Assembly (NCBI GenBank): GCA_900758495.1
Contig: CAAERO010000019.1
Location: forward strand, 14,252 to 78,251
Origin: Bacilli bacterium
Lineage (GTDB): Bacteria; Bacillota_I; Bacilli_A; RF39; UBA660
Length of the DNA: 64,000 nt
Direction: 5' to 3'
Part shown: positions 1,493 through 38,540 of the stretch, piece after piece
Layout: the number at the start of each line of letters is the position of its first letter
Position numbering within the stretch: position 1 is the stretch's first letter
Made by a program: the position numbers and the translations under genes
Notes under the pieces: generated by a model
What the model saw: the letters and a program-made list of their open reading frames with translations, nothing else
Told to the model about the DNA's origin: nothing
Database searches by the model: none

Positions 1493-1500
1493 GTTTAACT

Positions 1501-1535
1501 ATAATAAAAGGGGCACGTTTCACAACGGACCCCTT
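1501..1535 (-). terminator. Possible intrinsic terminator between the suppressor tRNA and terL
   Basis: GGGG (1510-1513) pairs with CCCC (1530-1533), with flanking A/T pairs. On the minus strand the hairpin is followed by UUUUAUUAU. Confidence 0.4.
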
Positions 1536-1733
1536 CTCTTCAAACCTTAAAACATTTTTATGAAAAAATTTAAAATTAGTGCAAAAAGCACTAGAATAGC
1601 TCTCTAGGTTATACCAGACCCTAGGAACTGGCCGACTTACGATTCGGACCTTCATTAGCTGTGTTTACTGTTAATTACTCAGTAAGTGACTTAGGTAGTT
1701 ACGTTGTATGCGCGCCATACTTCAGTTAGTTAT

Positions 1734-1808
1734 TGGTAGCCCCACTAGGATTCGAACCCAGACTAAGAGGGTTAGAGCCTCCTGTGCTAGCCATTACACC
1801 ATAGGGCA
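1734..1808 (-). tRNA. Amber suppressor tRNA, anticodon CUA (reads UAG); probably Gln-type
   Basis: The reverse complement folds as a cloverleaf: acceptor (U)GCCCUA / UGGGGC(U), U8 G9, D arm GUGU-AAUGGCUA-GCAC, anticodon arm GGAGG-CUCUAAC-CCUCU, variable UAGU, T arm CUGGG-UUCGAAU-CCUAG, A73, encoded CCA (tgg 1734-1736). The anticodon is the complement of + strand tag at 1773-1775. Confidence 0.85.
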
Positions 1809-1869
1809 GTAAGACGTGGCTTCTTTTTAGACGCTCCACGTAACGTCGCTGATTGAATATGTTTTAACC

Positions 1870-2028
1870 TTATTTCTTAAACCAACCTTTGATACGTTTG
1901 GTAATTCTCTTATACCAAGGCTTAATTACCTGGCGTGCAGCTTCACATTCTGCAATTGCTTCTTCTACTGTCTTATTATCATCTGTCAGATCTACTATTA
2001 TGTCTGGCAGTTCATTAGTCTTTTTCAT
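1870..2028 (-). CDS. Small hypothetical protein (52 aa, below the track cut-off)
   Basis: ATG at 2028 to TAA at 1870-1872: MKKTNELPDIIVDLTDDNKTVEEAIAECEAARQVIKPWYKRITKRIKGWFKK. Fills the gap between neighbouring co-oriented genes. Confidence 0.45.
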   Translation of the reverse strand: MKKTNELPDIIVDLTDDNKTVEEAIAECEAARQVIKPWYKRITKRIKGWFKK

Positions 2029-2085
2029 AATCTCTTAAATTTGTTTATCTAAACGATAGTGTTATTTTTTTGTATCTCTGCAGTG

Positions 2086-2625
2086 TTATTTTCTAACACC
2101 AGTTGGTAATTCGAAAGGATTAATCTTAGCATCACCTTTAACCCTAGTAGTATCCATTTCTCCAGCTTTAACTGCTTTTTCCAAGAAGTCTAAAGTAACA
2201 TATGTATCTTTTACTTTAGCAAATCCTGCTAAGTATTTTTCTATCTTCTTTTCATCTAGTTCCTCTTCAAGACTATCGTGATAGTATTGAGTAAAAGTAT
2301 CTAGTTTGAGTCTAATACTATTTAACATTGCAAGAGTACGAGTATATTGTAATCTCTTAAATGTATCTTCAGCTATTAGTTCATCTGGAGTAAGTTGATA
2401 ACCTTCTGGGAAAAATTCTTTCTTTAATGCTTCTTCTAAGATATCCTCGGTCATACTAAGTACATATGGGCTATCCCATTTATTCTTAAAGACTATATAA
2501 CTGATAACTGCTATAGCATGTTGTTTATCAGCCTTGTCTTTTTCCCATATTTTCTTAAATGCTGGAATAGCTAATGCATCTTCGTGTATTGTTACATTAC
2601 CACCTAGAATATCAAATAATTTCAT
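2086..2625 (-). CDS. Hypothetical protein (179 aa)
   Basis: Intact standard-code ORF ending in TAA, co-oriented and tightly packed with its neighbours. No family recognised by eye. Confidence 0.7.
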   Translation of the reverse strand: MKLFDILGGNVTIHEDALAIPAFKKIWEKDKADKQHAIAVISYIVFKNKWDSPYVLSMTEDILEEALKKEFFPEGYQLTPDELIAEDTFKRLQYTRTLAMLNSIRLKLDTFTQYYHDSLEEELDEKKIEKYLAGFAKVKDTYVTLDFLEKAVKAGEMDTTRVKGDAKINPFELPTGVRK

Positions 2626-2637
2626 TAATAGTCTCTT

Positions 2638-3015
2638 TTATACTCTTTTTAAATTAGAACAAGGTTCTTTACATTCACAAGGTTCATCTTTTCCTGATTG
2701 CTCTTCTTTATATGCTGCTACTTGTTCTTTAATCTCAAGTATTACGGCTAATAATTCAGGTGAATCAAATACAATAGGACGTTTGATATATTCACCTTCC
2801 CAATTACGAATTAAACCAATAATTTGCCCTTTCTTATAGGGGATATATCCTCCTACGCCATTATTAGTTATCTCATCAATGATAATTCTACCATCGTCCT
2901 CAGCGATTTTAATATCACTAAGTTCATAACATGATCGTTCACTTTTATACTTAAGATCTTCAAACGAATCTCCTATTAATGTAAAGTCTAAGTTTTTTCC
3001 AATTATAGTTTCCAT
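2638..3015 (-). CDS. Hypothetical protein (125 aa)
   Basis: Intact ORF, 12 nt from the downstream gene start, same strand. Confidence 0.7.
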   Translation of the reverse strand: METIIGKNLDFTLIGDSFEDLKYKSERSCYELSDIKIAEDDGRIIIDEITNNGVGGYIPYKKGQIIGLIRNWEGEYIKRPIVFDSPELLAVILEIKEQVAAYKEEQSGKDEPCECKEPCSNLKRV

Positions 3016-3092
3016 ATTAATCTATTCTATAACTTGTATAATATTCTTTTTGTAATCGTGCTAGAATTACTCTAGCTTGTTTCTCAGAGCAA

Positions 3093-3911
3093 TTAGGATT
3101 TACATATTCTGGATCCATTTGATACTTCTCTATCATTCTTTGATAAATCTCCATTTCCTGTTCCAGACTTTCCTTTGTTATATTCATCTTCATATCTCCT
3201 TATCAGATTATTAACTAATATATTTAGCGTATGAAAATCTGTACTACCTGTAAAATGTACACAAGGTATTACATCTTTATCGATATTAATTCCAAATATA
3301 TCTTTCTGTATATCTCCTAATGAGCTAATGTCATAATATACATCGTGATTTCCGTCATTATTTCTGCATATATACTCAGCTTTGATATTATAGCGGTTGT
3401 AAGTTCTATTGCTTAACTCATGCCCTAGATTATCAAGCTTTTCTCTTATCTCAGATTCTTCCTTTTTTTGACACTCCTCAATATTTTCTCTATTTTTATG
3501 TTCCTTTTCAGAAATCATACTATCTATATCGAGTATATCTAATAAGCTATTGCAATCATCAATCTTCTTAGATATGCGGTTATTGAGTTTGTCAATTAAG
3601 GATTCCTGAGTTTCTCCGTGCTTACTGCAGTAGAGCATTGCTATGGCATTCCAAGCTACTTGTGCAAGATGTCTACAACCGGTTTCGTTGTCCATCTCTT
3701 CTCCCTTTTCGAATAACACAAGATGTCTGAATAATGCGGCTTTATATCTAGAGTAACCATCTTTAAGTAACTGCCAAGTATTGACTCCGTACTTCTTTGA
3801 TCCTTCAGTATATACTTTAACGATATCTTCTAATTCTTCTAGAGGCAATAAATCCCATCTGAGTTTATTATCTTTAAAGTCATTCTTTATCCCCTGTTTC
3901 ATATTTATCAA
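3093..3911 (-). CDS. Protein with an N-terminal DUF5664-like (dATP/dGTP diphosphohydrolase N-terminal type) domain; C-terminal half unassigned
   Basis: RWDLLPLEELEDIVKVYTEGSKKYGVNTW ... FRHLVLFEKGEEMDNETGCRHLAQVAWNAIAML matches my recollection of this phage domain. The family assignment was not verified. Confidence 0.5.
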   Translation of the reverse strand: MINMKQGIKNDFKDNKLRWDLLPLEELEDIVKVYTEGSKKYGVNTWQLLKDGYSRYKAALFRHLVLFEKGEEMDNETGCRHLAQVAWNAIAMLYCSKHGETQESLIDKLNNRISKKIDDCNSLLDILDIDSMISEKEHKNRENIEECQKKEESEIREKLDNLGHELSNRTYNRYNIKAEYICRNNDGNHDVYYDISSLGDIQKDIFGINIDKDVIPCVHFTGSTDFHTLNILVNNLIRRYEDEYNKGKSGTGNGDLSKNDREVSNGSRICKS

Positions 3912-4155
3912 TCAACTTTTGACAGATATCGTTAACTACTTTTTCTCTCTTCTCTAATGAAGAATCATCTTCGTCAGATACTTCTTCCAATCCCTTCATC
4001 ATATCTTCTATAAAGTCAAAGTATGATATCTTATCAGCTTCAACTGCCTTTTCTACAGAATTTAGTAACTTCTGTATGATTTCGGGGGCTTCCTTAGAGT
4101 TTTCTCTCTCTAGCTTAAGTAAGTGTAGAGAGGTTTCTTTATCTATTTTATTCAT
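3880..4155 (-). CDS. Hypothetical acidic protein (91 aa)
   Basis: Intact ORF overlapping both neighbours by a few codons, as expected in an operon. Confidence 0.6.
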   Translation of the reverse strand: MNKIDKETSLHLLKLERENSKEAPEIIQKLLNSVEKAVEADKISYFDFIEDMMKGLEEVSDEDDSSLEKREKVVNDICQKLIDKYETGDKE

Positions 4156-4573
4156 TATCTCTTATATAGTCTATCATGTATTGACCTATCTTACCGGCTA
4201 CCCATCCTACTAAATATGCGTAAGGTTCGTTTCTTTCATCAAAAGATTCTGCACGAGCTCCAATTAATTGCCATATTGCATCAGTAATATGTGTTGACTC
4301 ATGTGCAATTGTATTGAATAGAAACTCACTTATAGCTCCATTGCTATCTTCATCTAGGAAAGTTATAACTCCTTTATAACCACTTTTTCTTTCCTTTACT
4401 AAGAAGGTAGTTGCTGCTGAACCCATTGGATCTGCTGGTATGCCATCATCATCAATCAACATATCTTGTACAGTTCCATAGAACTTGAATCTCTTCTTAC
4501 TATTGTAAAAGTCAGATATTGTACCGATATACAATGACATGGGATAAAGGTCTAAATCATACTTTCTAATCAT
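4148..4573 (-). CDS. Putative zinc metallopeptidase-like protein (HExxH)
   Basis: Intact 141-aa ORF containing NTIAHESTHITDAIW, an HExxH motif in a helical context. Confidence 0.5.
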   Translation of the reverse strand: MIRKYDLDLYPMSLYIGTISDFYNSKKRFKFYGTVQDMLIDDDGIPADPMGSAATTFLVKERKSGYKGVITFLDEDSNGAISEFLFNTIAHESTHITDAIWQLIGARAESFDERNEPYAYLVGWVAGKIGQYMIDYIRDNE

Positions 4574-4826
4574 CTTTTATTGCTTTATATATGTTCGCTA
4601 CCGCTTTATTACTAAGTAAATACAGATATAAGTAAACATCATCTGTCATTTTATAAGTAACGCTAGGAGTTATGATTTCATTAGAGACATCATTTAACTA
4701 TACTTCACAAGTATCTTTATTACCAGTAGGATATGATAGTTTAAAGTATACCATATACTCAATTAATTCTGTAACTATGTCAATCTCTGGTATCTTTGTC
4801 AGTCTAATTATCTTTCTATCTCTCAT
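4557..4826 (-). CDS. Possible small ORF that needs TAG read-through (about 89 codons)
   Basis: ATG at 4826, in-frame TAG at 4698-4700 and 4566-4568, TGA at 4557-4559. It would fill an otherwise empty 400-nt gap. Without read-through it encodes only 42 aa. Confidence 0.3.
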
Positions 4827-4972
4827 GATTCTTCTTTATCTTTATCTTACCTAAGTAAGTAAACATTAAGGGTTTTTCATCTCTCTAGCTTATTTTCCTG
4901 TTAGCAAACAGGAATGGGTGAGTACATATTGTTTTTATTACCTAAGTAGGTAGGTTATACTTCTTACTTAAC

Positions 4973-5401
4973 TCAATAAATATATTCACTCCAGTTTTGT
5001 TCATCAGCTAAATCCTTAATAGTGTAATACTTATTATCAAGGAAAGCATCCAAATCCTTAGTATTCTCAAAGGTATCAGGTCTAACACAATTAATAGCTG
5101 TAAATAGATCTGCTACTGTAGCTTTATTAGAAGACAACCAATCACCTTCTTCCTTACTAGAATCAACAATAGTATTCAATCTCTTAAGTTCCTTTTTACT
5201 ATAAGCCTTCTTAGGTTCTGCTACTACTGCATCTTTACGCTCACCTTGAATACTAACTAGATCACAATCATCTGTAAATATAATAAACTTATTATACTTA
5301 AGATTCTTCTTTCTAATCTTGTACCAGAGTTTTACTATCCAATTATAATCTCTTTGTAATAGGATAGAACCTGGTTTAATTGACATATATTCCATATTCA
5401 T
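4973..5401 (-). CDS. Hypothetical protein (142 aa)
   Basis: Intact ORF whose start abuts the stop of 5403..5672. Confidence 0.7.
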   Translation of the reverse strand: MNMEYMSIKPGSILLQRDYNWIVKLWYKIRKKNLKYNKFIIFTDDCDLVSIQGERKDAVVAEPKKAYSKKELKRLNTIVDSSKEEGDWLSSNKATVADLFTAINCVRPDTFENTKDLDAFLDNKYYTIKDLADEQNWSEYIY

Positions 5402-5402
5402 A

Positions 5403-5672
5403 TTATTCTCTGTCTAGTCGTAATACGATAGTAATTTGTACTCTATCTCCAATCACTTCAGGTATCAAAGCAGGATTAACCATCCATTCATCATCTGCTT
5501 TACCCTTAACAATCAGACCTTTATCTCTTAATCTTCCTATATATCTACTTAGATTATCACCTGTAATGCCTGTTGCGGCTTTTAGATAACGTCTGTTTTC
5601 TGTACTTATAACATTCTTACTGTAACCAGGGAGCTTTGGAGTATTAATATCTAATTCAATGAGTAATACCAT
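5403..5672 (-). CDS. Winged-helix/HTH DNA-binding protein (putative transcription regulator)
   Basis: NRRYLKAATGITGDNLSRYIGRLRDKGLIVKGKADDEWMVNP looks like a MarR/wHTH recognition helix plus wing. Confidence 0.55.
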   Translation of the reverse strand: MVLLIELDINTPKLPGYSKNVISTENRRYLKAATGITGDNLSRYIGRLRDKGLIVKGKADDEWMVNPALIPEVIGDRVQITIVLRLDRE

Positions 5673-5797
5673 TATATCCTGCTCCCTGTCAGTAAGCTAA
5701 AGTACGCCATCAAGCGATCTGAGGAATTCTCGATAAAGATCCGTTTTCTTAACTGTTTTAACTAATTTGTTCATTTATTCGGATCCCTATTACGAGT

Positions 5798-6214
5798 TTA
5801 TTCATTAATAATATCTTTAATCTTGTTTAATACTTTAGTAAGGTTATAATAAACTGTATCAGCTTCTACTTTAACACAAGTAGGTACTTCTTGATTATTA
5901 TAAGCCTCTTCGAGTTTCTTGTGATCTGTTTCGTACTGTTCTAAGAGACTATCAATCGTATTGGCAATCGTATCAAGCTTGTCTGACATCTCTTCCAACA
6001 AAGTATCGTCACAGCTACATTCGTCCTCATCATCGAGTACAATGAGATAGCCCTCATCAACATATTCATCACAAGTATCTTTATCCATAAACAAAGCACG
6101 TTCACTCGTTTCGTCTTTAAAATAGAACTCAAACATTTCTGTTTCATCATTCCAAGTAAGGATATTACCTTTCTTACCACAAGCAAACTCTTTTACTACT
6201 TTATACTGTACCAT
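5798..6214 (-). CDS. Hypothetical acidic protein (138 aa)
   Basis: Intact ORF. The overlapping same-strand track ORF 5941..6186 is in another frame and is rejected. Confidence 0.65.
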   Translation of the reverse strand: MVQYKVVKEFACGKKGNILTWNDETEMFEFYFKDETSERALFMDKDTCDEYVDEGYLIVLDDEDECSCDDTLLEEMSDKLDTIANTIDSLLEQYETDHKKLEEAYNNQEVPTCVKVEADTVYYNLTKVLNKIKDIINE

Positions 6215-6323
6215 AATAATTATTATTTTTAATTGTCTTAATAGTTGTTACAATTACATAAACGTGAAGTGTTAAAAAGGTAACTATATTTTAACATTTG
6301 TTAACTATTTAACTTAATGCAAT

Positions 6324-6351
6324 AAAAAAGGCTAGATCCGCAGACCTAGCC
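6324..6351 (-). terminator. Intrinsic terminator after the GroES-like gene
   Basis: GGCTAG (6330-6335) pairs with CTAGCC (6346-6351). An A6 run at 6324-6329 on the + strand gives a U-run after the hairpin on the minus strand. Confidence 0.65.
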
Positions 6352-6380
6352 CCACAACAACTATTAATACGCATTAATAC

Positions 6381-6746
6381 TTATTTCTTAACTTTCTTTG
6401 CAACACAATCATAAGATTTTACCAGCATACTATCTTTGAATAAATCAAAGTCTTTAGCAAATTTCTTATTAAATACAATAGTATCTCCTACTTCAAATTT
6501 GAGGAGAGTAGAGTCTAGATTAGACCCAATTGCAAGTACGATACCGGTTCTCCACTCTGATTCAACTTCTTTTACTTCAGTCTTAGTATCAAACTTCTCA
6601 TAACCGTCTACGTCTTTTTCACCTGTACCAACTGCTTCAGTAACTTCTTTCTTTAACATAATAGGCGCAAGAGGTTTAACTAAGATATCCTGCAGAGGAG
6701 TATATTCTAAACCGTTAACTACTGTTTCAAGTACTTTATCTTCCAT
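6381..6746 (-). CDS. GroES-like co-chaperonin (Hsp10 family-like)
   Basis: ILVKPLAP ... TGIVLAIGSN ... FEVGDTIVFNK ... SMLVKSYDCVA follows the GroES pattern (IxVKP, GIVL, VGDxVxF), with an expanded loop. Confidence 0.5.
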   Translation of the reverse strand: MEDKVLETVVNGLEYTPLQDILVKPLAPIMLKKEVTEAVGTGEKDVDGYEKFDTKTEVKEVESEWRTGIVLAIGSNLDSTLLKFEVGDTIVFNKKFAKDFDLFKDSMLVKSYDCVAKKVKK

Positions 6747-6767
6747 ATATTTTATAACGTATAATTT

Positions 6768-6941
6768 TTATCTTTGTTCTATTAATTTCAGTATGTTTCC
6801 ACCCCAAATACAATTCCTTAAAGCCTTTGGGACACAATGTCTGGTATAGAAATAACAGCCGTCACAGCTACCATTGTCTGTCTTAACTACTTCAAATTTC
6901 TTACCTAGAATCTCTACTACTTTATTTTCTTTTGTTGGCAT
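6768..6941 (-). CDS. Small Cys-rich protein (57 aa), paralog of 7026..7226
   Basis: ATG at 6941 to TAA at 6768-6770: ...SCDGCYFYTRHCVPKALRNCIWGGNILKLIEQR. Same C-x2-C ... C ... C ... G-x-IL-K/R-x-IE pattern as the neighbouring ORF. Confidence 0.5.
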   Translation of the reverse strand: MPTKENKVVEILGKKFEVVKTDNGSCDGCYFYTRHCVPKALRNCIWGGNILKLIEQR

Positions 6942-7025
6942 ACTTCTTAAAGTTTAGTATAACCTGATATATTGCATGTACTATACCACCACCAATTATC
7001 AAGCCTATCCAGAATTCTTCTTTCA

Positions 7026-7226
7026 TTATAACTCTATCTTTCTAAGTATATAACCCTGTCTACACAATTGTACAATTCTATCTGGACAGCTATTATTATA
7101 TAAAGCACAACCTTTACAATACTTCTGAGAAGTATCTGTTTGTACTAATTGATAAGTGTTTCTATTATGATTTATGTACATACCTGAGTATGCCTCTATT
7201 TTATTAACTACTTTTCTTTTTCCCAT
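7026..7226 (-). CDS. Small Cys-rich protein (66 aa)
   Basis: ...YCKGCALYNNSCPDRIVQLCRQGYILRKIEL; intact ORF. Confidence 0.6.
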   Translation of the reverse strand: MGKRKVVNKIEAYSGMYINHNRNTYQLVQTDTSQKYCKGCALYNNSCPDRIVQLCRQGYILRKIEL

Positions 7227-7425
7227 AATACGTATTATATATACTTTAACTAAGTAAAGACATTATCTAAAGTAAGGACTATTAATACTGTCTAATCTGT
7301 CTTAGACTGTCTTTAACTGTATAGACAGTAACGTATAAAACACTACTTAGGTTCCCTTTTATATTAACTTTTTAACATTTATTAAGAACAATTATGGCTA
7401 TTTAACACACAAAATTTAACATTTT

Positions 7426-7887
7426 TTAAGATAATAATTTCTTTACCTTCTCCTTACTCTGATAACAGGTTATAAAATGCAGATGCCGGTATTCCCCTTT
7501 TGCTTTAATCTTTATTATATTTATCAATCTCTTACTAGGATCTACTGCGATAGATTGGTCAACTAACTGTGCCTTAGCTATTCGTTTGGCGAATATCCTA
7601 ATTCTACCTATATCATCTCTTTTACATCTTCTGAGATATCTTTCATTAAACCTATTTACATAGTGTTCACAACAGTGAAATATTACTATTTCATCTGTAC
7701 TCATATCATGATACCAGCCGGAAATCTCTTTACTGAAATTAGTAAAGTATACCTTATAAATCAGTTCACGGCCGGCTCTTATATTGACAACAATTATCTT
7801 AGTGTTATCAACAGTAACCTCTACATAGGGGAGCGAATCTATACTATCCCCTATCTTCTGTATATAATAATGTGGATCGTATTTCAT
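7426..7887 (-). CDS. Hypothetical protein (153 aa); first gene of the leftward block
   Basis: Intact ORF. A divergent intergenic region lies upstream. Confidence 0.7.
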   Translation of the reverse strand: MKYDPHYYIQKIGDSIDSLPYVEVTVDNTKIIVVNIRAGRELIYKVYFTNFSKEISGWYHDMSTDEIVIFHCCEHYVNRFNERYLRRCKRDDIGRIRIFAKRIAKAQLVDQSIAVDPSKRLINIIKIKAKGEYRHLHFITCYQSKEKVKKLLS

Positions 7888-8066: not shown

Positions 8067-8765
8067 CTATGTTCACATTTTTTAACTTTTTAAACTTTTT
8101 TGCTTATGTTGTGTATTGTTAAACAATTTGAAAAGAGAGAAGACGAAAATCGTGAGTTACCGTATTATGTTATACGTGCTACTGGTACAGTAGGAGACGT
8201 AAACGCTACAAGTGCATTTAACGATGACGGGACTATTAATGTTATGGCTATGCAAAGTAGGGTTTACAATTTCACTAAAACCATGTTCCCAGCCACACGG
8301 GAACTATGTGATAGCCTTGAGAGCGGTATGCCTGTTGATGATGATAATAATGTAATAGAGGAACGCAAAATTAACCTTATGTTATATCAGTGGGATACGG
8401 GTAAAAAGTTTCATATCCTTAACAGGGATGGCGAATATTATTCGGATGAAAAAGAAGTCGAAAAAACAAGCGACGGTACGGCAAGGGTTAACGGTAAAGT
8501 GATACCAAAAGGACAAAAGTATAAAACAACTGAGTTAGTCCCCCGTGTGTATTCTAATATTAGTCTTGTACTGTTCTGTGATGCCGAAGAAAACAGTGTC
8601 GAAGGTAAACCGGAAGAACTTGCCGAACGTAACTTCAAAAGAGGCCTTGAAAACGGTACGTATGTTTTAGTAGATTAAAATATATGGCTTTTTCTCTCAA
8701 TGTGTGAAGCGTAGGGCTTAATAAGCCTTGCGCATTCTGCATATCACAATTGAATGTGAACATAG
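8067..8765. repeat. 13-bp perfect inverted repeat bracketing ORF 8106..8678
   Basis: CTATGTTCACATT at 8067-8079 and its exact reverse complement AATGTGAACATAG at 8753-8765. Confidence 0.8.
8106..8678 (+). CDS. Hypothetical protein (about 190 aa), visibly GC-richer than its surroundings
   Basis: Intact ORF. The first ATG is at 8106; the track starts at TTG 8100. Ends in TAA. Confidence 0.7.
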   Translation: MLCIVKQFEKREDENRELPYYVIRATGTVGDVNATSAFNDDGTINVMAMQSRVYNFTKTMFPATRELCDSLESGMPVDDDNNVIEERKINLMLYQWDTGKKFHILNRDGEYYSDEKEVEKTSDGTARVNGKVIPKGQKYKTTELVPRVYSNISLVLFCDAEENSVEGKPEELAERNFKRGLENGTYVLVD

Positions 8766-9123
8766 CGAAAATTAGTCAATAATCAAGATATAATCACCGC
8801 TGACAGACCGGGAATAAGAATAGTCTGTCAATTTAAAAAACTCAATAACTTCGGAGTAGCGTAAGCTACGGAGTTGTGTAACAATCCCAAGACATTGAGG
8901 GCACCAGTTTCTTATAATAGTATAGTTGGCAGACGTAAGGGCGTACTCAGCTGCCGTGTGAAGCAGTGAATTCTGTGGACTGATAGAGAACGTGTAATAT
9001 TCAGGCTATGCGTTACGTAGTTATAAGTTTTAGGTGTAAAATGCAAAATCAATGGGGATATCAAACGTCTCCAAAAGCTCTTCTAATTTGCTTTCTACGT
9101 GGTAATAGAAAAGCTGAATAACT

Positions 9124-9664: not shown

Positions 9665-9828
9665 AGAGTTTGCTATCTGTTTAGCCATAGCAATATCGTT
9701 ATGGCTAATCAGTATTGTGTCCTTCCATTTGTTTGGAATCTAATAATATAATATAGATTTTCGCAAAGTAATTATTCTATGAAATGCAAATCATCTACTT
9801 ATGTCGTGAGACATTATTTAACCACGTT

Positions 9829-9902
9829 AAAGTATAATAATATAAGTTAGGTATGCCCTTATAAAGACTTAGATAACGCTAAGGACTATATTATTATACT
9901 TT
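9829..9902. repeat. 16-bp perfect AT-rich inverted repeat (long hairpin or cruciform)
   Basis: AAAGTATAATAATATA (9829-9844) and TATATTATTATACTTT (9887-9902), with a 42-nt spacer that itself contains complementary words. Confidence 0.8.
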
Positions 9903-10663
9903 CTTCTTTAATGCGACCAACGTCAGTGACAAGTCTGATAAATGCAGAGTCAAAGAAGCTATTACAGTTTATTATGCACAAATAGATTATAATAGTAAAA
10001 CCACGTGGTAAGGGCACAGTTAGGTTCGCTGTGAGTGCGCCCTTTGTAGCAACTAACCAAAGCAAGTATAGATGGGAATAAGCTATTACCTCGATAGGCT
10101 TAATGAGGTGCTTGACAGTCTGACACTAACTGAACAATAAGTGTCAAATAACTCTCTACTGAATCACAGGCTCGAGACGTTTAAGAGTTAGCGTGTGTAG
10201 GTAGAGAGTTCTTTAAGGTGAGAATCCTTGACAAGCATGTGGGGCTTATATCTATCTATAAACAAGGAGACGGACTAATTTTTATTAGTACAAGGAGTCG
10301 GTTATAGTAGTATTAGTGCAGACTTTAAAATCATGCAGTATAACAATCTTCCATATACTAATGCAATAGTGAACTTCTGAATCATGTTATACTTATTAGT
10401 CCTAAGCGTAGGATAGTCCTCAACTTATTATGTTCCGTTAGCTTAATATGGATTTGTGGAATACTAAGAGTAGTATTGCTAGTATGTTTATATGTGAATA
10501 TAGGTATACTAGTTGCACTCATAAGGCAGCCTTCACGTGGCGAGTGTGTTAAGTAATAGGTTAAATAAATCTTCCAGTTTGTACCTATGAAAACTAATGC
10601 CTTATAAAATTAGTCAAAGTCTTTTATATCAATATATATTGTTTAATTAAAATTATCAAAATT

Positions 10664-11007: not shown

Positions 11008-12303
11008 ATGACTAAGTGGCAAGAATCGTGCATTACAGCACTCGCTTCATCCCCAATGGCATGGGAAGCCTTTAAAATGAAGCAAAGAAACAGAAAGTTA
11101 TTATGGCAATATATAAATCGTATATGGCCATATAAACTGATTGCAGGAACGAAAGTAAATAAAAATAAGAAAGATCTTCTCGCTATTGCTAGAATACTAA
11201 AAAACCTATCATCTACAATTCAATATTATGTTCCAGGTATAGAAAGGGCAAGTTGTATAGAAGACGTTGATGTTCGATTTGATAAAGTAGACTGGCTTTG
11301 TATTAAAGATATTATATCGAAAGAAGATAGCGAATATAAAAGAATAGTTAGAGGAGCATATTGTGGCAATCACTTATTTTCTTTAGATTACACTTACCTA
11401 GATGATGATAATTTTGAAAGTTGGTGTATGTCTGGAGGCAATCATAATCTAATAGATGTTCTTAATACTTGTTTTGGGGAGTGTTATCTCCATGATCATT
11501 GTTATATAACTGGTATAAGATTTCATTCTAACATTACAAATACATATAATATGTTATTGCAAATGCAAGATGAAATAACTTATATTCTGTGTAAGATAGT
11601 TAAAACTATTGAAGGTGTTAAAGGTAATACTTTAAAGTACACCTTAAAAGACAGAAGAAAATATAATTCTTTAAATGTCGGTATTGAAATAGAACATGAT
11701 GCGGAATATCCTACACCAAATAAGATTCAAAGAGCTATCTTACTTAATAACTGTGTATCATATGATTCAGGTTATGATGGCAACTCTTCTAATAGGCTAC
11801 GAGAAAATCGTATTCGGTTAAATGGTATTAAAGGCTTAAAAGGCTTGTATATACTATTAACTAATATGAAAGAAAATTGTGCGATTGCCAAAAATAGTAG
11901 CGTACATATGCATATTGATTGTAAATATGACAACTTCTTTATGGATCGTAGTAAATTCTATAAAGGAAGTGAAAAAGATTGCATATATGGTATGGTAGAT
12001 GTTCTAGCTATTAGAATGAGTAAATATCAATCTAATACGGATAGTGCTTTGCAAATTATATCGGATATTGTAGAATATGAAGTTACTAGATATCATTTTA
12101 ATACTAGTGATTATACTAGATATGATAATGAATTTAACACTATAGAATATCGATTCGCGAAAATAAATTTTAACTATTCTGATTATGTTATACAAATTTT
12201 GACATTTATTCATATAACGGAGTGCATTAAGCATGATGCTCCGTTTAACATTCAGTATTTAGAGTTACTATATAAAGTAATGAAGAATCTGAATAATAAT
12301 TAG
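11008..12303 (+). CDS. Hypothetical protein (431 aa); ends in TAG
   Basis: Long intact ORF. Possible metal-site motifs (GIEIEHDAEYP, SSVHMHIDC) but no family assigned. Confidence 0.75.
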   Translation: MTKWQESCITALASSPMAWEAFKMKQRNRKLLWQYINRIWPYKLIAGTKVNKNKKDLLAIARILKNLSSTIQYYVPGIERASCIEDVDVRFDKVDWLCIKDIISKEDSEYKRIVRGAYCGNHLFSLDYTYLDDDNFESWCMSGGNHNLIDVLNTCFGECYLHDHCYITGIRFHSNITNTYNMLLQMQDEITYILCKIVKTIEGVKGNTLKYTLKDRRKYNSLNVGIEIEHDAEYPTPNKIQRAILLNNCVSYDSGYDGNSSNRLRENRIRLNGIKGLKGLYILLTNMKENCAIAKNSSVHMHIDCKYDNFFMDRSKFYKGSEKDCIYGMVDVLAIRMSKYQSNTDSALQIISDIVEYEVTRYHFNTSDYTRYDNEFNTIEYRFAKINFNYSDYVIQILTFIHITECIKHDAPFNIQYLELLYKVMKNLNNN

Positions 12304-12690
12304 GTTTCCGATCTAACACTGAAATTGCTAGCATTAAGGTGTTATACAGGAATTAGCGTAGACTAATCTTCTAGAGAATAGTCATTTATCGCTCGGTTTA
12401 TCTGTTCGTTCCAGTAATTGCCAAACGAAAAACAGATGGGCACACATGAAGAGGTAGCTGTCGAATTGTGTGTGTAGTTGTTTTGTTTATATCAATATTT
12501 AGCCTTCGTATTATATTAGAGGAATACATGTCACTAAATAAAGATATAAATAAGGCAAACCTCTGCCCTATAGTTTAATTCTGTAATCAATACAGAGTGA
12601 GTATAAAACAACAGTATGATGCTTACTGTTATCTAGGTTCTCAGTCCTAGTAGGGTACTATCTAAGAATTTTAACTAAAATCAATTTAGT

Positions 12691-13973: not shown

Positions 13974-14441
13974 ATGGAAAGCCAAAACAAAAACGGGCTT
14001 ATTTATGCCCTAATTTTCAGTATTATCGCTTTCATTGTTAGTATAGGTACTGCTATTAGCGTACGTACTAATATTATGGACGATATTAAAGATGCTATTA
14101 ACCCTGATAAGGTTGAAAGTGTACAAACTACGGATACAACAACGTATACCGAACCGGTAACTATCGATGACATTCTCCAGTTCCGAAAGGATATTAAAGA
14201 ACAATCTCGATATGATTCAATATTTATGAATATGCCGGATGTAGCCCTTATTGCAATACTTATGAAAGGAGGCACTGAAATGTCGAATAGTGACATAGCC
14301 AAGGAGTATTTGCAAAACAGGAAGGACTACGATAATGTAGAATTTGGTGCACAAATTAATGATACTTATAAACAAAATAAGATTACACCAGATTCTATAC
14401 CGAGGAAATCTACGGCTGATATACCTATTAAAGATGAATAA
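13974..14441 (+). CDS. Membrane-anchored hypothetical protein (155 aa)
   Basis: N-terminal hydrophobic helix LIYALIFSIIAFIVSIGTAISV. Confidence 0.65.
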   Translation: MESQNKNGLIYALIFSIIAFIVSIGTAISVRTNIMDDIKDAINPDKVESVQTTDTTTYTEPVTIDDILQFRKDIKEQSRYDSIFMNMPDVALIAILMKGGTEMSNSDIAKEYLQNRKDYDNVEFGAQINDTYKQNKITPDSIPRKSTADIPIKDE

Positions 14442-14870
14442 AAATGTCCTTTATATTTAGTTATTGATAATTATTGCACTTGTTCGTGAGAATAGGTGCA
14501 ATTGCCTAAATGAATGTCTTCAGAAGATGACAAACCTGTGGGGCGTAAGTAATAAAGAGTCTGAAAGATTGCAGATAAGAGTATGCACTTATTGGCAATA
14601 TGCATACCAGAATAATTTATTATGATCGTGCGGACGTTAAAATCAGGTACTCCAATAAGATTTAGTTTTGCAGCTATTTCTGCTTATGAGTTAAAACTAA
14701 GCGAGAGCTTAAAATTGAAATTGAGACTATTCTAGTTTCGGTAAATAAGTAAAAAGCGTTTTACAAGTCTCTTATTAACAAGTGTAAGGTGGATATTAAC
14801 TGTTCAACAAAAAAATCCAGAATATCCTGGTCGTCGTCAATTGAGTTATTAACTTTTAAATATTTAAAAG

Positions 14871-16154: not shown

Positions 16155-16527
16155 CCCTAAACAAGTTAGTATGGTGCAGTCAACCCAAGCTACTATTTAC
16201 CAACCAAAACCCTAATGGAAGCTTAGAAATAAGCAAGAGTACAATGGACTATACAACGGTCAACCAGGTATTACTATCTAGGTCAGGTGAAGGAAAGGGG
16301 TTGCCTATGAATAAGGAATACGAATAAATAGGATAGTAGCATTAAGGGTATATAGCTTTGATCGGCTATATACCCACAATAAAAGTTAACTATAAAAATA
16401 GCAGGAGTATTGTATAACATAACGAAGGCCTACCTGTAGAGAGTGCTGTGAAATAGATTATTCTATGAAGTATGGCTTAATTCTGCACGCGAGTTATACT
16501 TTAGTTAACTTTAAAGAAATTGACTGT

Positions 16528-16578
16528 TAGGTCTATTGAATCGTCGTTTGGACACGGGTTCGACTCCCGTATGCTCCA
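16528..16578 (+). ncRNA. ssrA: tmRNA-like acceptor piece (3' half of the tRNA-like domain), located upstream of its 5' partner
   Basis: GGUCUAUU-GAAUC-GUCGUU, then UGGAC, T arm ACGGG-UUCGACU-CCCGU, 3' acceptor strand AUGCUCC and A73. This parallels the E. coli ssrA 3' end ...GGAC-GCGGG-UUCAACU-CCCGC-CAGCUCC-A. Confidence 0.65.
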
Positions 16579-16671
16579 CTATGTTCGTTCGACTCGAACC
16601 AGTGGCAGCTCCTGTGATGGGTAACTCTTCCTCATGTGTGAAATAACACAAATGGCAACTGAGCTGCAATC

Positions 16672-16813
16672 GGGGCATTATGGTTTTGACAGCGACATAG
16701 AGGAGATAGAATAGGTCAATAAGCAGATAACTGGCAATACAAGTTATGTAACAGATTACACTCGCTTAGTAGCGTGATAATCTGAACGGCTCGCCATTGT
16801 CGTAAAAGGCTGG
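16672..16813 (+). ncRNA. ssrA: tmRNA-like coding piece: 5' acceptor strand, P2 strand and tag reading frame
   Basis: GGGGCAUUAUGGUUUUGACAGCGAC parallels E. coli GGGGCUGAUUCUGGAUUCGACGGG. GGGGCAU pairs with AUGCUCC (16571-16577) and gives a G3:U70 pair. AGCGAC and AAUAGGUC pair with GUCGUU and GGUCUAUU of the upstream piece. Frame 16733-16774 encodes GNTSYVTDYTRLVA, followed by TGA TAA (16775-16780). The 3' boundary is uncertain. Confidence 0.65.
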
Positions 16814-16891
16814 GGTAAGTAGTTTCATAAGGCTTAGAAACGCTAACACTGATAAAGTTAGAAGAGGGAGGTTCGAATCCTCTCCTTACCA
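16814..16891 (+). tRNA. Non-canonical tRNA-like gene, possibly tRNA-Ile(GAU)
   Basis: Acceptor GGUAAG(U)/(C)CUUACC + A73, D arm UUUC-AUAAGGCUUA-GAAA, T arm GGAGG-UUCGAAU-CCUCU. The anticodon arm is CUAAC/GUUAG enclosing 9 nt (ACUGAUAAA). That can also be read as a canonical CUGAUAA loop (anticodon GAU, 16851-16853) closed by an A.A mismatch on a 6-level stem. A8 replaces U8, and 7:66 is a U.C mismatch. Confidence 0.5.
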
Positions 16892-21336: not shown

Positions 21337-23297
21337 TCTGCCGAAGATAAACGCAGACCGCTAATAGAGATGCACAAGCGGTATATAAGAGCTATAAGTG
21401 TAAAAATTCATTACTTGAGCCTGACTAAGCCGTGTGATGTGAGCAATACAGGATACTGAAATGTATAAGTAATAGCAAACACTATTCTATTTATACTATA
21501 GTATGATAACTTGTTGTGTTATAAAATTGTTCTATAACTGAAGAAGCAACAAGAAAATGGGAGAGCGTGCGTAACCCGTAAGTGAGAACCGACTGGTGAC
21601 TAAAAGACGCAGATGTGGAAGGAGCAGCTATCGCATCTAAACAAGGCAAAGGGGTATCGTTCACCTCTATACATATCCGTTTTAGCTATTTCAAAAGCAG
21701 AATCACGAAGGGATGTGAACACGTGCTGTATGTTGTCATTTAAATCTGAATCGACTAGCATTCTAGGGTAGTCTCCAAAACTCCCCTGTGCAGGGCGGTA
21801 ACCAATCCGTTGGCCAAAGAATACTAACCTAGTGTTTTACATATATTTAAAATCTTCACTCGTATCGAAGCGCATGATTCAATTGGGAATGGACATTATT
21901 TGTCTAAATATATGTATATAAAGGGGTAAATTATATAATAATGAGCAGAAATTGAGACAAGACATGGCTGAGTAGCAATGATCCATATAGAACTTCATTT
22001 GTATTGAAGCTATATGACTGATTAACTGGATTAGGTGCAAAACCTATACGCAATACAGTGAACGTAAGAGTTAGCTGTTTGGGAGAAATCCCTATGGAAA
22101 GTAAATTGCGTGTCTTACAGCTTGAGATATTTCATATATAGTTGCAATTACTATACTGTTTATGACAAATAAGCAGAATGAAGTTAAGGTTATTATATAA
22201 TAAAGTGACTTGTCAGTAATGTCACTATAAAATCTAACGTGCTTTGCACTGGAGTATAAACTGACTAGCGCCTGAAGTCCGCAATAAGACTATTGGTTGA
22301 TAGATATAGGATTAGTATAAATATATCTATTTCGAAAGAAAAGGGAGTGGGCCAGGACCACTATTAAAACTTGGAAAGTTGAAGTAAGGTTACTTTAGTA
22401 CTAAGGTTTGCTATAAATAATTTGGTAAGAGCTATGCACTCCAGCATAGAGCAGGATCTTACAAAGCATCCTAGAGGCCGACACGAAGCAGAGTGGAAGT
22501 AGTCTGTGTATTGCCTTAATAAGCAGCTTGCATATTAAAGAGAATATGAAGAAGGTAAGACTTATTAATGAGTGCCTACGCTGAATCGAACAGCTATAAC
22601 AAATAAGGAGAGTGTCAATATGTTCAACTTAAAAACAATAGGGAAGTTCAATGGTAGTAAGTTTGACAAGCTTACAAGCCACCCCGCTATCGAAGAACCT
22701 TGCTACATGAAATTTCGTAAAGTAATATGCGCAACATATTACCTAAGAAGATCGCTGAAACGATGCTTTAGTACCTCTCATTAGGGTATGTCGTTGAATG
22801 GTTGGAAATACCATGAGGTGAAGTAGTAACCCGAGATTTGTCGCAATGTCGGAAGTGAATTTGTCCGGAAGTGGGTGTCTTGAAAAATTAGACAGCTTTT
22901 GTAACAGTGTTTTAGTAACGTTTCTCAACAGAAACGACCCTCATTCGCTAGGTCCTATTTAGGATAAGAATGTTGTAATAGCTTATATGCCTGTAGACAT
23001 ACCAGTTGTCGATGATAGGCCCTGTATATTATACTAGTACAATACTTATGCTAGATTATATGATATATGGTACGGCGTTTTCGTATTGAAAGTTCAGCTT
23101 AACGTAAAAAAGGTCTGAATGAATAAGCAAGAGTTGATAGACTTTTTGTAAACAAATAATTCTATCTATAAACATACAGAGTATTTTTATAAATTGACAT
23201 ATTTTAATCGTTTAAGTGAAAGTAGATAGCAGAAGAACAGTTGACTCATACGTCTTATGAGTAAAGTCCTACGGGGAATACTGAGTATGAAGAATCA

Positions 23298-23437
23298 AGT
23301 AAATTACAGATTTTATCAGACATTAACAGATTTACAAGTAAACTTCAGAATATGCAATAGCATTACGATCTAGTAAGTGAGTTCTACTATACTTATACAC
23401 ATTAACAGTAAATTACAGATTTTATCAGACATTAACA
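23298..23437. repeat. Two identical 31-nt direct repeats 109 nt apart
   Basis: AGTAAATTACAGATTTTATCAGACATTAACA at 23298-23328 and 23407-23437. The core ACAGATTTTATC recurs at about 34750-34761. Confidence 0.85.
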
Positions 23438-23626
23438 ATTCGTCGTATTACTGAATACATTATTGAGATTAATTAACCTCTTTCAAAGCTTTATTAAAGC
23501 GGCTCTAAGAGACTGAGCAGGTTAGCAGAATAAGAGTAATACGCTAAATTTAAAAATTAGTATTAACAAAAAAATGATTGTATCTCGCTAAGAAATCAAT
23601 CTTAAAATCAAGTAGGAGATATTAAA

Positions 23627-34889: not shown

Positions 34890-35879
34890 ATGTATGATAA
34901 AAGAAGGGTAAAGAAACCCACAGAATGTATTACTTTAGATTATATATTATCTAAGGTAACCGAATACGACATATATGCTCATTACTTAGGGCAATTCAAA
35001 GTAGGAGCTATCTATAATAGTCCATTTCGTAAGGATAAAAACCCTTCTTTTGGAGTTTATTATAGTAAGCGAACAAAACAGCTATTATTTAAAGATCACG
35101 GTACAGGAGAATGTGGAAATGTAATTAAGTTTGTATCCTTATTCACAGGAATAACAAACTATAATGATATTCTTAAGGATATTATTAAACAATTGCATAT
35201 TACTCCTGATACTACTTTAGATAATAGTAAGCAGTATACTCCATCTACAGATACTGTTATTGGAGTAGTACGCCAGGACTTTACTTCAACTGATATAAAT
35301 TACTGGCAACAATTTAATATATCTAAGGAAACATTAAAGAAATTTAATGTTAATAGTATTAAATACTATTTATGCAATGGTATTGTAAAAGGTATTTATA
35401 AACCTGAAAATCCTATGTATGCTTATAAAGTATACAATAACTTTAAAATTTATAGACCATTAGCAGATAAATATACAAAATGGCGTAATAACTTAACTGA
35501 ATATGACATTCAAGGTTATGCTCAATTACCTAAAAAAGGAGATGTATTATTTATAACTAAAAGTATGAAAGATGTAATGTGCCTTTATGAGATGGGAATA
35601 CCCGCAATATCTCCTTCATCTGAAAGTACTTTTATTCCTAATGATATATTAGAGGATCTTAAGAAGCGTTTTAAGCGCATTATAATCCTGTTTGATAGAG
35701 ACCCAGCAGGAGTAAGATATAGTCGTAAAATAAGCCTTAAAATGGGCTTAGAAGCTTGTTTTATACCAAAGTATTTAAATGCAAAAGATGTATCGGATGC
35801 TATAAAATTAAATAACTTTGAAATTGTAAAAAAAGAAATAGAGAAAATTGTTAACAAACAATATAAACATGCGTTATAA
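34890..35879 (+). CDS. DnaG-like DNA primase (Toprim)
   Basis: NSPFRKDKNPSFGVYY resembles the DnaG CPFHxEKTPSF motif without the Cys ligands. Toprim-like VLFITKSMKDVMCLYEMGIPAISPSSE ... IIILFDRDPAG. Confidence 0.6.
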   Translation: MYDKRRVKKPTECITLDYILSKVTEYDIYAHYLGQFKVGAIYNSPFRKDKNPSFGVYYSKRTKQLLFKDHGTGECGNVIKFVSLFTGITNYNDILKDIIKQLHITPDTTLDNSKQYTPSTDTVIGVVRQDFTSTDINYWQQFNISKETLKKFNVNSIKYYLCNGIVKGIYKPENPMYAYKVYNNFKIYRPLADKYTKWRNNLTEYDIQGYAQLPKKGDVLFITKSMKDVMCLYEMGIPAISPSSESTFIPNDILEDLKKRFKRIIILFDRDPAGVRYSRKISLKMGLEACFIPKYLNAKDVSDAIKLNNFEIVKKEIEKIVNKQYKHAL

Positions 35880-35906: not shown

Positions 35907-36446
35907 ATGAAAAAAGAAAATGAAATTTGGAAAGTTATACCAAATTATGAAAATTATGAAGCTTCTAATTTTGGAAGAATAAGGTCAATTGATAGAGTAG
36001 TTAAGAGAGATCGTTATACTACCAGAAAGATAAAAGGTAAAATACTACAGCAGTTTGCTAAAAACTCAGGATATTTACAAGTAAATTTATCTAAAAATAG
36101 TAAAATAGAAACAAAAACCGTACACAGGTTAGTAGCTATTACTTTTTTAGAAAACACAAATAATTATACAGATGTTAACCATAAAGATGAAAATAAACAT
36201 AATAATAATATTAATAATCTTGAATGGTGTACTAGAAAGTATAATATGAACTATAATAAATTGCCACTTAAGAAATATAAGAAGGTATTAAAATTTAATA
36301 AAGAAGGATGTTTACTATGTATCTATACAAGTTTAAAAGAAGCTGCAGAGCTTAGTAATTTATCTAAGAGTACAATAAGTGGTTATTGTAATAACTTACA
36401 TAAAGATCCTAACGGATATATTTGGAAATATGAAACCAAAAAATAA
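35907..36446 (+). CDS. HNH homing endonuclease (NUMOD4 + HNH_3 + C-terminal HTH type)
   Basis: WKVIPNYENYEASNFGRIRS (NUMOD4), VHRLVAITFLEN...VNHKDENKHNNNINNLEWCT (HNH), SLKEAAELSNLSKSTISGYCN (DNA-binding module). Confidence 0.85.
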   Translation: MKKENEIWKVIPNYENYEASNFGRIRSIDRVVKRDRYTTRKIKGKILQQFAKNSGYLQVNLSKNSKIETKTVHRLVAITFLENTNNYTDVNHKDENKHNNNINNLEWCTRKYNMNYNKLPLKKYKKVLKFNKEGCLLCIYTSLKEAAELSNLSKSTISGYCNNLHKDPNGYIWKYETKK

Positions 36447-36828
36447 AAAGAAATAGACAAAAGGTAGAGTAAAAAATGCTACACCTAATGTCTACAATGG
36501 TATAAAGTTCCGAAGTAAACTTGAAACCTATACATACAAAAAACTTAAAGAAGCTAAAATTCCAGCTGAATATGAATCAACCCACTTTGAGTTAATACCT
36601 AAGTTCGAATATAATGGAGAGAAAGTAAGAGCTATGACTTACTTACCTGATTTTATAGGTAAAGACTTTATAATTGAATGTAAAGGACTCATTGGAGATT
36701 CATTCCCTTTACGTTGGAAAATCTTTAAGTATACTCTAATGAAGAGTAATTCTAACTATAAACTATATTTAGTTAGAAACCAAAAACAAGTCGATGCTAT
36801 AATCGATGAATTAAAAACCAAAAATTAA
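36430..36828 (+). CDS. T7 endonuclease I-like Holliday-junction resolvase (PD-(D/E)xK); needs read-through of TAG at codon 9
   Basis: The conserved part YNGIKFRSKLETYTYKKLKEAKIPAEYE...MTYLPDFIGKDFIIECKG lies upstream of the only downstream start (36634). There is no ATG/GTG/TTG between the TAG at 36454-36456 and 36634. The in-frame ATG at 36430 gives MKPKNKKK-TAG-TKGRVKNATPNVYNGIKFRS... Confidence 0.6.
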
Positions 36829-37775: not shown

Positions 37776-38540
37776 ATGAAAGTATGTGGTTTAAGTGATT
37801 TACATGGTAATTTTATTGATATACCAGAGTGTGATGTACTATGTATCTGCGGAGATATAGTAGGATTAGTTGAACAACGTTCAATTGAACAGTCTAGACA
37901 TTGGTGGTATAATAGATTTACTAGTTGGGTTAATAGATTACCTTGTAAAAAGGTAATTATTACTCCTGGAAATCATGATTTTTTCCTTGAAGATGCTTAT
38001 AAAAAAGGTTATCTTGAAGAATTACGTAAAGATTTAAGCGCTAGAACTAATGGTAAGTTAGAAATTCTTATAAATAGTGAATATACTTACGAAGGAATAA
38101 AGTTCTATGGCTGCCCTTTTATACGTCCTATAAAGTTCCAAAATGGAAGATGGGCGTTTGAGGATGATTATAATGAGGAAAGTAATATTTGTTGTTATGA
38201 TAATATTCCAAAAGATACAGATGTACTTCTTACTCATGATAATCCCTATTATAATGGTATATTAAACTATCTTATACCTAAAAATATAAAATATCATCTA
38301 TACGGTCATTGGCATGAAGGAACTTCTTTTATTGAAAATAATAAATATAGACATAATTGTTCTATATTGAATGATATGTATAACATAAAAGATAATTTTA
38401 AGCCTATAGTTATTGATGTTAATAAGGACATTGTTCCTATAAAAGAGGATGAGATTCCTCTACCAGTAACTGGAGATATTATAGATGATGAGCAAAATTT
38501 AACAGATGAAGATTATGAACTTGATACAGAAAGCAATTAA
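37776..38540 (+). CDS. Calcineurin-like metallophosphoesterase
   Basis: LSDLHGN, ICGDIVG, TPGNHDF, LTHDNP, GHWH motifs in canonical order. Confidence 0.8.
   Translation: MKVCGLSDLHGNFIDIPECDVLCICGDIVGLVEQRSIEQSRHWWYNRFTSWVNRLPCKKVIITPGNHDFFLEDAYKKGYLEELRKDLSARTNGKLEILINSEYTYEGIKFYGCPFIRPIKFQNGRWAFEDDYNEESNICCYDNIPKDTDVLLTHDNPYYNGILNYLIPKNIKYHLYGHWHEGTSFIENNKYRHNCSILNDMYNIKDNFKPIVIDVNKDIVPIKEDEIPLPVTGDIIDDEQNLTDEDYELDTESN

Follow-up and report, generated by a model that had tools for sequence, protein, structure and literature searches.

An amber codon near the start of a DUF1064 nuclease gene in TAG-recoded crAss-like phages, a candidate link between one early-block protein and the code switch

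Results

A nuclease gene interrupted by a single amber codon

The DNA analysed here is a 64,000-nucleotide stretch of contig CAAERO010000019.1 (positions 14,252 to 78,251; hereafter the window). It belongs to a TAG-recoded (genetic code 15) crAss-like phage of the family Suoliviridae, and its nearest RefSeq genome is that of cr125_1, Aurodevirus hominis (Suoliviridae, Uncouvirinae; NC_055900.1). Our subject is a gene on the plus strand of the window, at 36430-36828, that encodes a DUF1064 nuclease of the PD-(D/E)XK type, named 'Holliday junction resolvase' in annotations, and that has 132 codons, one of them an in-frame TAG, before its TAA stop at 36826-36828. The frame opens at an ATG (36430-36432) that lies within the final stretch of the homing-endonuclease gene preceding it and meets the TAG at codon 9 (36454-36456), so that the translation reads MKPKNKKK*TKGRVKNATPNVYNGIKFRSKLE...LPDF...ECKG...KTKN, with the asterisk standing for the TAG. 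This amber codon, which we call the sentinel codon, would be read as glutamine (Gln) when the suppressor tRNA is present, and it aligns with a CAA-encoded Gln in relatives that have no TAG in the gene.

A mechanical list of open reading frames (ORFs), in which a start is the first ATG, GTG or TTG after a stop, opens the nuclease frame only at the ATG at 36634 and yields 64 amino acids. The initial annotation had pointed out that the conserved N-terminal half of the protein lies upstream of this only listed start, and the alignments agree: the DUF1064 profile covers residues 19-109, and the codon of Glu32 (FRSKLE), the first catalytic acidic residue and invariant in our alignment, is found at 36523-36525, 5' of the only canonical internal start. 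Its further claim, that the frame contains no ATG, GTG or TTG from the TAG to 36634, was borne out by a scan of the frame; the first canonical start past the TAG is codon 69 (Met69, 36634-36636), beyond the catalytic Glu. A product initiated there would retain the remaining active-site motif seen in the sequence and in the alignment, Asp74 ... Glu83-Cys-Lys85 (LPDF...ECKG, 36649-36684), and would lack Glu32 as well as the strands and helix with which the predicted fold begins. The 64-residue product is therefore not the complete domain that could have accounted for the gene without read-through. That a full-length enzyme requires initiation at ATG 36430 and passage through the TAG had been proposed from this one sequence; among relatives the same order of ATG and then TAG recurs in about 15 N-terminal contexts, and we have little doubt that the full-length nuclease is made by suppressor read-through of the TAG.

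The phage switches code, and TAG is a stop in its early block

The late genes of the window form a block on the minus strand (40351-63820) that is heavily recoded, with 118 in-frame TAGs making up 32% of its Gln codons. Five ORFs of this block are continuous only with TAG as a sense codon. These 118 TAGs fall in 7811 codons, a usage of 1.5% of codons, and single late proteins carry 26-59 of them; from a late block with so many in-frame TAGs it follows that the phage switches code. In the early genes, comprising 30 plus-strand genes and 6996 codons between 11 and 40 kb, none of the 220 Gln codons is TAG. The likely reader of the sentinel codon is a suppressor tRNA with anticodon CUA, encoded on the minus strand at 1734-1808 (anticodon cta in ARAGORN; Rfam tRNA match at 1737-1808, 54.8 bits). 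As read from its sequence, this tRNA has a U-U mismatch at positions 1/72 and an encoded CCA, and the unpaired 1-72 position resembles a trait of tRNA-Gln identity in E. coli. Minus-strand genes from 7887 down to 2086, transcriptionally upstream of tRNA(CUA), are TAG-free, including an amidase-type endolysin-like gene (3093-3911), and the next gene past the tRNA, for the large subunit of terminase, is split by a stop in the standard code (fragments 77-538 and 548-1024). In this part of the window (77-7887) tRNA(CUA) seems to mark where TAG use begins on the minus strand.

Within the early block, the nuclease gene is the sole gene that needs TAG read-through near its start. The other plus-strand genes had been described as internally TAG-free, and this is what we found: there is no internal TAG in the 30 genes, against 118 in the late genes. 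Orthologs of 15 neighbouring early genes (18-82 loci each) also lack an in-frame TAG, except for two singletons. In an unbiased scan, nearly all other TAG-containing plus-strand ORFs proved to be TAG-terminated genes or upstream extensions with an ATG just past the TAG. TAG behaves as a stop in the early block, since the plus-strand gene at 11008-12303 terminates with it (the next stop is 21 codons on, at 12366) and several early genes of relatives end in TAG too (for example L025 6663-7817 and L063 9031-10029, loci of the survey described below). In these relatives a TAA or TGA usually follows 1-6 codons further, and late read-through of such genes would append just a short tail.

An N-terminal TAG marks the nuclease gene of most recoded phages

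We surveyed 311 loci from IMG/VR and GenBank, which gave 240 distinct nuclease gene sequences, and classed a phage as recoded when its large ORFs were TAG-rich. At least one TAG was present in the N-terminal part of the gene in 160 of 169 distinct sequences from recoded phages (Uncouvirinae, Loutivirinae, Bearivirinae). None of the 48 sequences from standard-code relatives, mostly Boorivirinae, has a TAG in the nuclease gene, which opens in these phages with a similar basic tail. Among them is L054, a phage of standard code that branches inside the recoded group. In Uncouvirinae and Loutivirinae the TAG falls within the basic tail, at codons 2-15, and the variety of its contexts is large (MVAKRNKKK*TKGRV, MAKLKSKKTKK*GKV, MKRLTKKKG*KKV, MEQKKK*GKV, MKK*KKQGRV and MLK*DHS... 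are among them), while in Bearivirinae it is found at codon 31-33 (YTY*KLKEA). Additional TAGs occur at codons 41, 114 and 123 in 15 sequences, and no sequence among the 240 carries a TAG in the body of the gene without an N-terminal one. The database proteins closest to the window's nuclease have Gln at the position of its TAG, and their DNA codon there is TAG; RefSeq annotates the ortholog of cr125_1 across the TAG. DUF1064 genes of Steigviridae, which are standard-code phages and start this gene with GTG, are uninformative as an independent comparison.

The persistence of the TAG can be set against the turnover of other codons in the same gene. At identical residues, synonymous codon identity between the window and other lineages is 0.43-0.68 (0.89 for one close relative), hence silent sites have largely turned over. 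For a conserved Gln in the body of the protein (the first Q of QKQV), 57 sequences use CAA, 40 use CAG and 15 use TAG; all of these sequences retain the N-terminal TAG, and within one Loutivirinae subgroup the codon differs among close relatives. This use of three codons at one conserved residue shows that TAG means Gln in the nuclease gene itself, and that TAG, CAG and CAA swap fast where unconstrained, unlike the fixed N-terminal TAG. In every TAG-bearing lineage, moreover, an in-frame ATG lies 1-14 codons before the TAG with no TAA or TGA between them, an arrangement that chance would provide for 18% of TAGs (a rate taken from 635 TAG trinucleotides on the plus strand of the early block). 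When the nuclease proteins are placed on a neighbour-joining tree, the pattern requires either one early gain and several losses or several gains.

The TAG is kept whatever lies upstream

In the window, the primase gene (34890-35879, plus strand) is followed by a NUMOD4/HNH homing endonuclease gene (35907-36446, plus strand), which occupies the junction between primase and resolvase and whose 3' end supplies the ATG of the nuclease. Two surveyed loci, L001 and L002, have no homing endonuclease, and there the primase gene overlaps the resolvase start. Comparison with L001 revealed a remnant of the original primase 3' end in the window (…IKRNRQKVE*, 36434-36472, plus strand), in the frame one base downstream of that of the nuclease: the insertion of the homing endonuclease replaced the primase C-terminus and the first codons of the nuclease gene, and despite it an in-frame ATG still precedes the TAG. 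Homologs of the homing endonuclease are present in 18 loci, and the junction sequence ..IFGNM is also found in a distant lineage (L077, around 9980-10010) with about 62% protein identity, which suggests repeated homing into the primase/resolvase junction.

Across the survey the TAG is kept with any upstream gene, be it the primase in either of two other frames, a small ORF or the homing endonuclease, and it is thus not the by-product of an overlapping frame. We also considered that overlapping upstream coding or a DNA motif holds the TAG in place, and rejected this idea because both the flanks and the geometry of the overlap vary. The one shared trait of the flanks is a purine after the TAG, common here as at most late-gene TAGs.

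A predicted PD-(D/E)XK nuclease of the DUF1064 family

For profile searches we used the nuclease sequence with Gln at the TAG position. It matched Pfam DUF1064 (PF06356) with 46.4 bits against a cut-off of 24.7 (E = 6.3e-12; profile positions 8-107 of 117) and PHROG 190, 'Holliday junction resolvase', at E = 1.7e-13. Residues E32, D74, E83 and K85 make up the PD-(D/E)XK motif (E ... D ... E-x-K) and are invariant in 29 homologs; the alignment has 58 invariant columns, these catalytic residues included, and the remainder of the nuclease ORF is intact. The motif, together with a mixed alpha/beta core in the predicted model, places the protein in the PD-(D/E)XK superfamily. The structure, predicted as a monomer from the residues past the TAG, is of moderate confidence (predicted local distance difference test score, pLDDT, of 74), and its best Foldseek matches in the PDB are PD-(D/E)XK nucleases (I-Bth0305I, SSO0001, VRR_NUC and TnsA), at E-values that are not significant.

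The initial annotation had called the protein 'T7 endonuclease I-like'. This description is right for the superfamily only, and the family name that the profiles support is DUF1064: the match to the T7 endonuclease I family (Phage_endo_I, PF05367) reaches 17.7 bits (E = 0.0028), below the cut-off of 29.1. T7 endonuclease I (1fzr/1m0d) was not among the top 50 Foldseek PDB matches of the monomer model, whose confidence is moderate, and a sequence search of the PDB with the nuclease returned nothing relevant. The protein is probably a debranching or junction-resolving enzyme; the specific function of 'Holliday junction resolvase' comes from the names given to PHROG 190 and to RefSeq relatives.

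Alternative explanations for the TAG

Judged from the single sequence, before any comparison with relatives, the TAG might be a recent nonsense mutation in a pseudogene or a miscalled base in the assembly. Comparative data refute this and leave it next to no probability: many contigs assembled independently share the arrangement, as do RefSeq genomes, NC_055900.1 among them, so the TAG at 36454-36456 is not the sequencing error that had been considered at the outset, and the ORF is otherwise intact, with all its invariant columns and catalytic residues. It is very improbable, too, that the TAG closes a tiny upstream ORF and that the nuclease is made independently of the suppressor, through a non-canonical start downstream, reinitiation or frameshifting out of the preceding gene. 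One near-cognate codon, the Ile codon of GIKF (ATA/ATT), is conserved, and in loci of the L001 type the primase is read across the TAG in another frame, from which a -1 slip at CAA AAG G could bring ribosomes into that of the nuclease. That Ile codon, however, is constrained by the protein and is the only conserved candidate for the non-canonical start that the initial annotation had allowed for; starting at it would delete the first strand of the predicted model. From the TAG to the catalytic Glu the relatives have no canonical start in common, GTG or TTG appearing there in only three scattered sequences, and the segment from ATG to TAG is open in the nuclease frame in every TAG-bearing lineage, far more often than expected by chance. 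A -1 frameshift from the primase, conceivable in L001-type loci, was rejected because the upstream gene and its frame vary by lineage and the old primase frame has no start in the window.

The TAG could instead act on dose: incomplete suppression at one early UAG would hold the nuclease low relative to the upstream primase, whose gene runs into the nuclease start in most relatives, and timing would be irrelevant. Nucleases of the debranching kind are generally needed in small amounts, and in relatives without the homing endonuclease the overlap of the nuclease start with the primase 3' end limits independent control of initiation. Yet late proteins carrying 26-59 TAGs demand near-complete suppression at each codon, so a single TAG would lower the yield only slightly once the suppressor is active, and the extra TAGs of some lineages would then add little effect; a dose limiter is therefore improbable. 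The main rival is a neutral origin of the TAG, which we hold to be rather unlikely. If the nuclease is needed only late, a TAG would be neutral once the suppressor exists and would gather in the unconstrained basic tail as a by-product and not as regulation, the product being suppressor-dependent all the same. Several observations fit such tolerance and weigh against a selected gate. Late genes use TAG for almost a third of their Gln codons, and the tail is highly variable in sequence and weakly constrained, so that TAGs could accumulate there neutrally. Nine recoded sequences, from Buorbuivirus (cr4_1/L070 type) and Oafivirinae (cr124_1, Bohxovirus and Dulem virus 42), have no TAG in the nuclease gene, hence a gate is dispensable; some Loutivirinae have two or three, one of them at the conserved Gln where CAA, CAG and TAG interchange, hence TAG is tolerated in this gene. 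Taken together, these lineages indicate that some recoded phages do without the gate and that it can comprise more than one codon. Our counts are not independent events, given that the lineages share ancestry, and the enzymatic activity itself is predicted, with a model of pLDDT 74 and matches to solved structures that are not significant. On the other side, the N-terminal TAG is found in about 95% of the distinct sequences and in three subfamilies even though synonymous sites have largely turned over; the TAG at the body site is polymorphic in close relatives where the N-terminal one is fixed, and it never occurs alone. A rough estimate from the 1.5% usage of late genes gives well under one TAG per tail of 10-15 codons, far below what is observed. 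Considering all this evidence, we favour the view that selection maintains the N-terminal TAG as a timing gate that withholds the nuclease until the code switch, and regard it as plausible and somewhat more likely than not.

A possible coupling of the nuclease to the code switch

The nuclease mRNA is part of the replication block, which uses the standard code. With a gate of this kind, UAG would be a stop for the host early in infection, and translation begun at AUG 36430 would end after a peptide of 8 residues; with no usable start past the UAG, no enzyme would be made at this stage. When tRNA(CUA) of the phage has built up and the late genes can be translated, ribosomes would insert Gln at the UAG of codon 9 and the full 132-residue nuclease would appear, and in this manner one early amber codon would couple its synthesis to the code switch. 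The nuclease can probably be made only after this switch. Delay would benefit the phage if a debranching nuclease made early cut replication and recombination intermediates, which may render early expression toxic. Debranching nucleases act at packaging, a very late step at which T4 endonuclease VII mainly works (PMC3016281), and this gives a rationale for delaying the nuclease. As a broader proposition, recoded phages would use a selected 5' 'sentinel' stop codon to make one protein dependent on the code switch, here a debranching nuclease barred from replicating DNA; to this general form we give even chances.

Mobile elements and structured RNAs around the nuclease gene

A gene for an Mre11-like phosphoesterase is intact in the window (37776-38540, 254 amino acids). 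In cr125_1 (L084, NC_055900.1, 4824-6731) it is annotated as two fragments around a 'mobile intron protein' endonuclease, and looks like a further mobile-element insertion polymorphism in the module of the nuclease.

Coding gaps of the plus strand that contain apparent TAG-containing ORFs hold RAGATH-7, RAGATH-9, two Hatchet ribozymes and a permuted transfer-messenger RNA (tmRNA), and the relaxed TAG-containing ORFs at 9779-10081 and 14335-14625 overlap RAGATH-7 and Hatchet RNAs. This cluster of structured RNAs, all on the plus strand of the early block, was located with Rfam at 9957-10146, 10209-10336, 14516-14648, 16176-16343 and 16519-16777. Scores are high for RAGATH-7 (170 bits), RAGATH-9 (147 bits) and the Hatchet ribozymes (97 and 89 bits), and barely above threshold for the permuted tmRNA (47.8 vs 47 bits), which ARAGORN also calls, at 16487-16868. 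A phage tmRNA in a stop-codon-recoded phage may be linked to ribosome rescue during the code switch. In a region of about 2.3 kb on the plus strand (21337-23626), where the G+C content of the window peaks (0.39), neither code yields a convincing ORF and Rfam gave no match. Among relatives, the divergent recoded phage L068 has an early block that is TAG-free except for a 262-codon ORF with five in-frame TAGs (8227-9015, plus strand), perhaps a gene of late type peculiar to that lineage or one acquired recently.

Discussion

Block-wise TAG-to-Gln recoding of late genes is well described in crAss-like and other gut phages (Ivanova 2014; Yutin 2021, PMC7886860; Borges 2022, 10.1101/2021.08.26.457843; Peters 2022, PMC9523058; Mgcod, 10.1101/2022.06.29.495998), and proteomic confirmation that TAG is Gln in crAss-like phages has been published. 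Recoding has also been proposed as a timer of late or lytic genes (Borges 2022 preprint, 10.1101/2021.08.26.457843; Peters 2022, PMC9523058). These papers describe the replication block as standard-code or 'dual-coded', and in the papers that we searched we found no mention of a nuclease or resolvase with a reassigned codon. The gene model across the TAG is already known, in RefSeq. What is new is an early-block gene with typically one TAG near its start, conserved in three subfamilies and absent from standard-code relatives.

Prior support for recoding as a timer is a correlation at the level of blocks, and a single conserved amber gate would be its smallest and directly testable form. Its parts are tractable: one codon that can be mutated, one 70-nucleotide fragment and one tRNA gene. 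If the TAG does act as a sentinel, the code switch would be a general-purpose signal that individual early-block genes can join, beyond the late modules, and the nuclease gene would offer a natural reporter, a single codon, for the moment of the switch. There is also a consequence for annotation, as genetic code 11 calls the nuclease as a 64-residue fragment or misses the gene, and tools that assign codes block by block would label the region standard-code.

Among known systems, the protein itself has a parallel in the DUF1064 family (PF06356), predicted PD-(D/E)XK nucleases of tailed phages (Kosinski et al. 2005, PMC1189080), with which it shares a significant hidden Markov model match and the same motif; our searches turned up no description of a DUF1064 member with an internal stop codon. 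In its probable function, the nuclease compares with T4 endonuclease VII (gene 49) and T7 endonuclease I (gene 3), two small phage enzymes that remove branched DNA ahead of packaging or while it proceeds. T7 endonuclease I has the order of the PD-(D/E)XK motif (E...D...E-x-K) in common with the nuclease of the window, with a weak Pfam match, whereas the fold of T4 endonuclease VII is different. Translation of T4 gene 49 is limited by mRNA structure in early transcripts, and to our knowledge neither enzyme is controlled by a stop codon. The comparison suggests that debranching nucleases must be kept off replicating phage DNA, and that different phages achieve this by different means.

As for the stop codon, the read-through of Qbeta A1 and of gag-pol in murine leukaemia virus (MuLV) resembles the present case in that one in-frame stop decides on a downstream protein. 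In those viruses a low and constant fraction of ribosomes reads through by means of host tRNAs, and two functional products result. Here the product before the stop has 8 residues and the suppressor tRNA is dedicated and encoded by the virus, which argues against membership in the Qbeta/MuLV type; a time-dependent outcome would be expected and not a fixed ratio. Another relation is with block-wise recoding itself, which takes place in the same phage family, with tRNA(CUA) and TAG as Gln, and for which TAG-bearing genes are likewise proposed to be untranslatable before the code switch. There, whole late modules carry many TAGs, whereas here it is one gene of the early block, typically with one TAG near its start, that carries it across three subfamilies.

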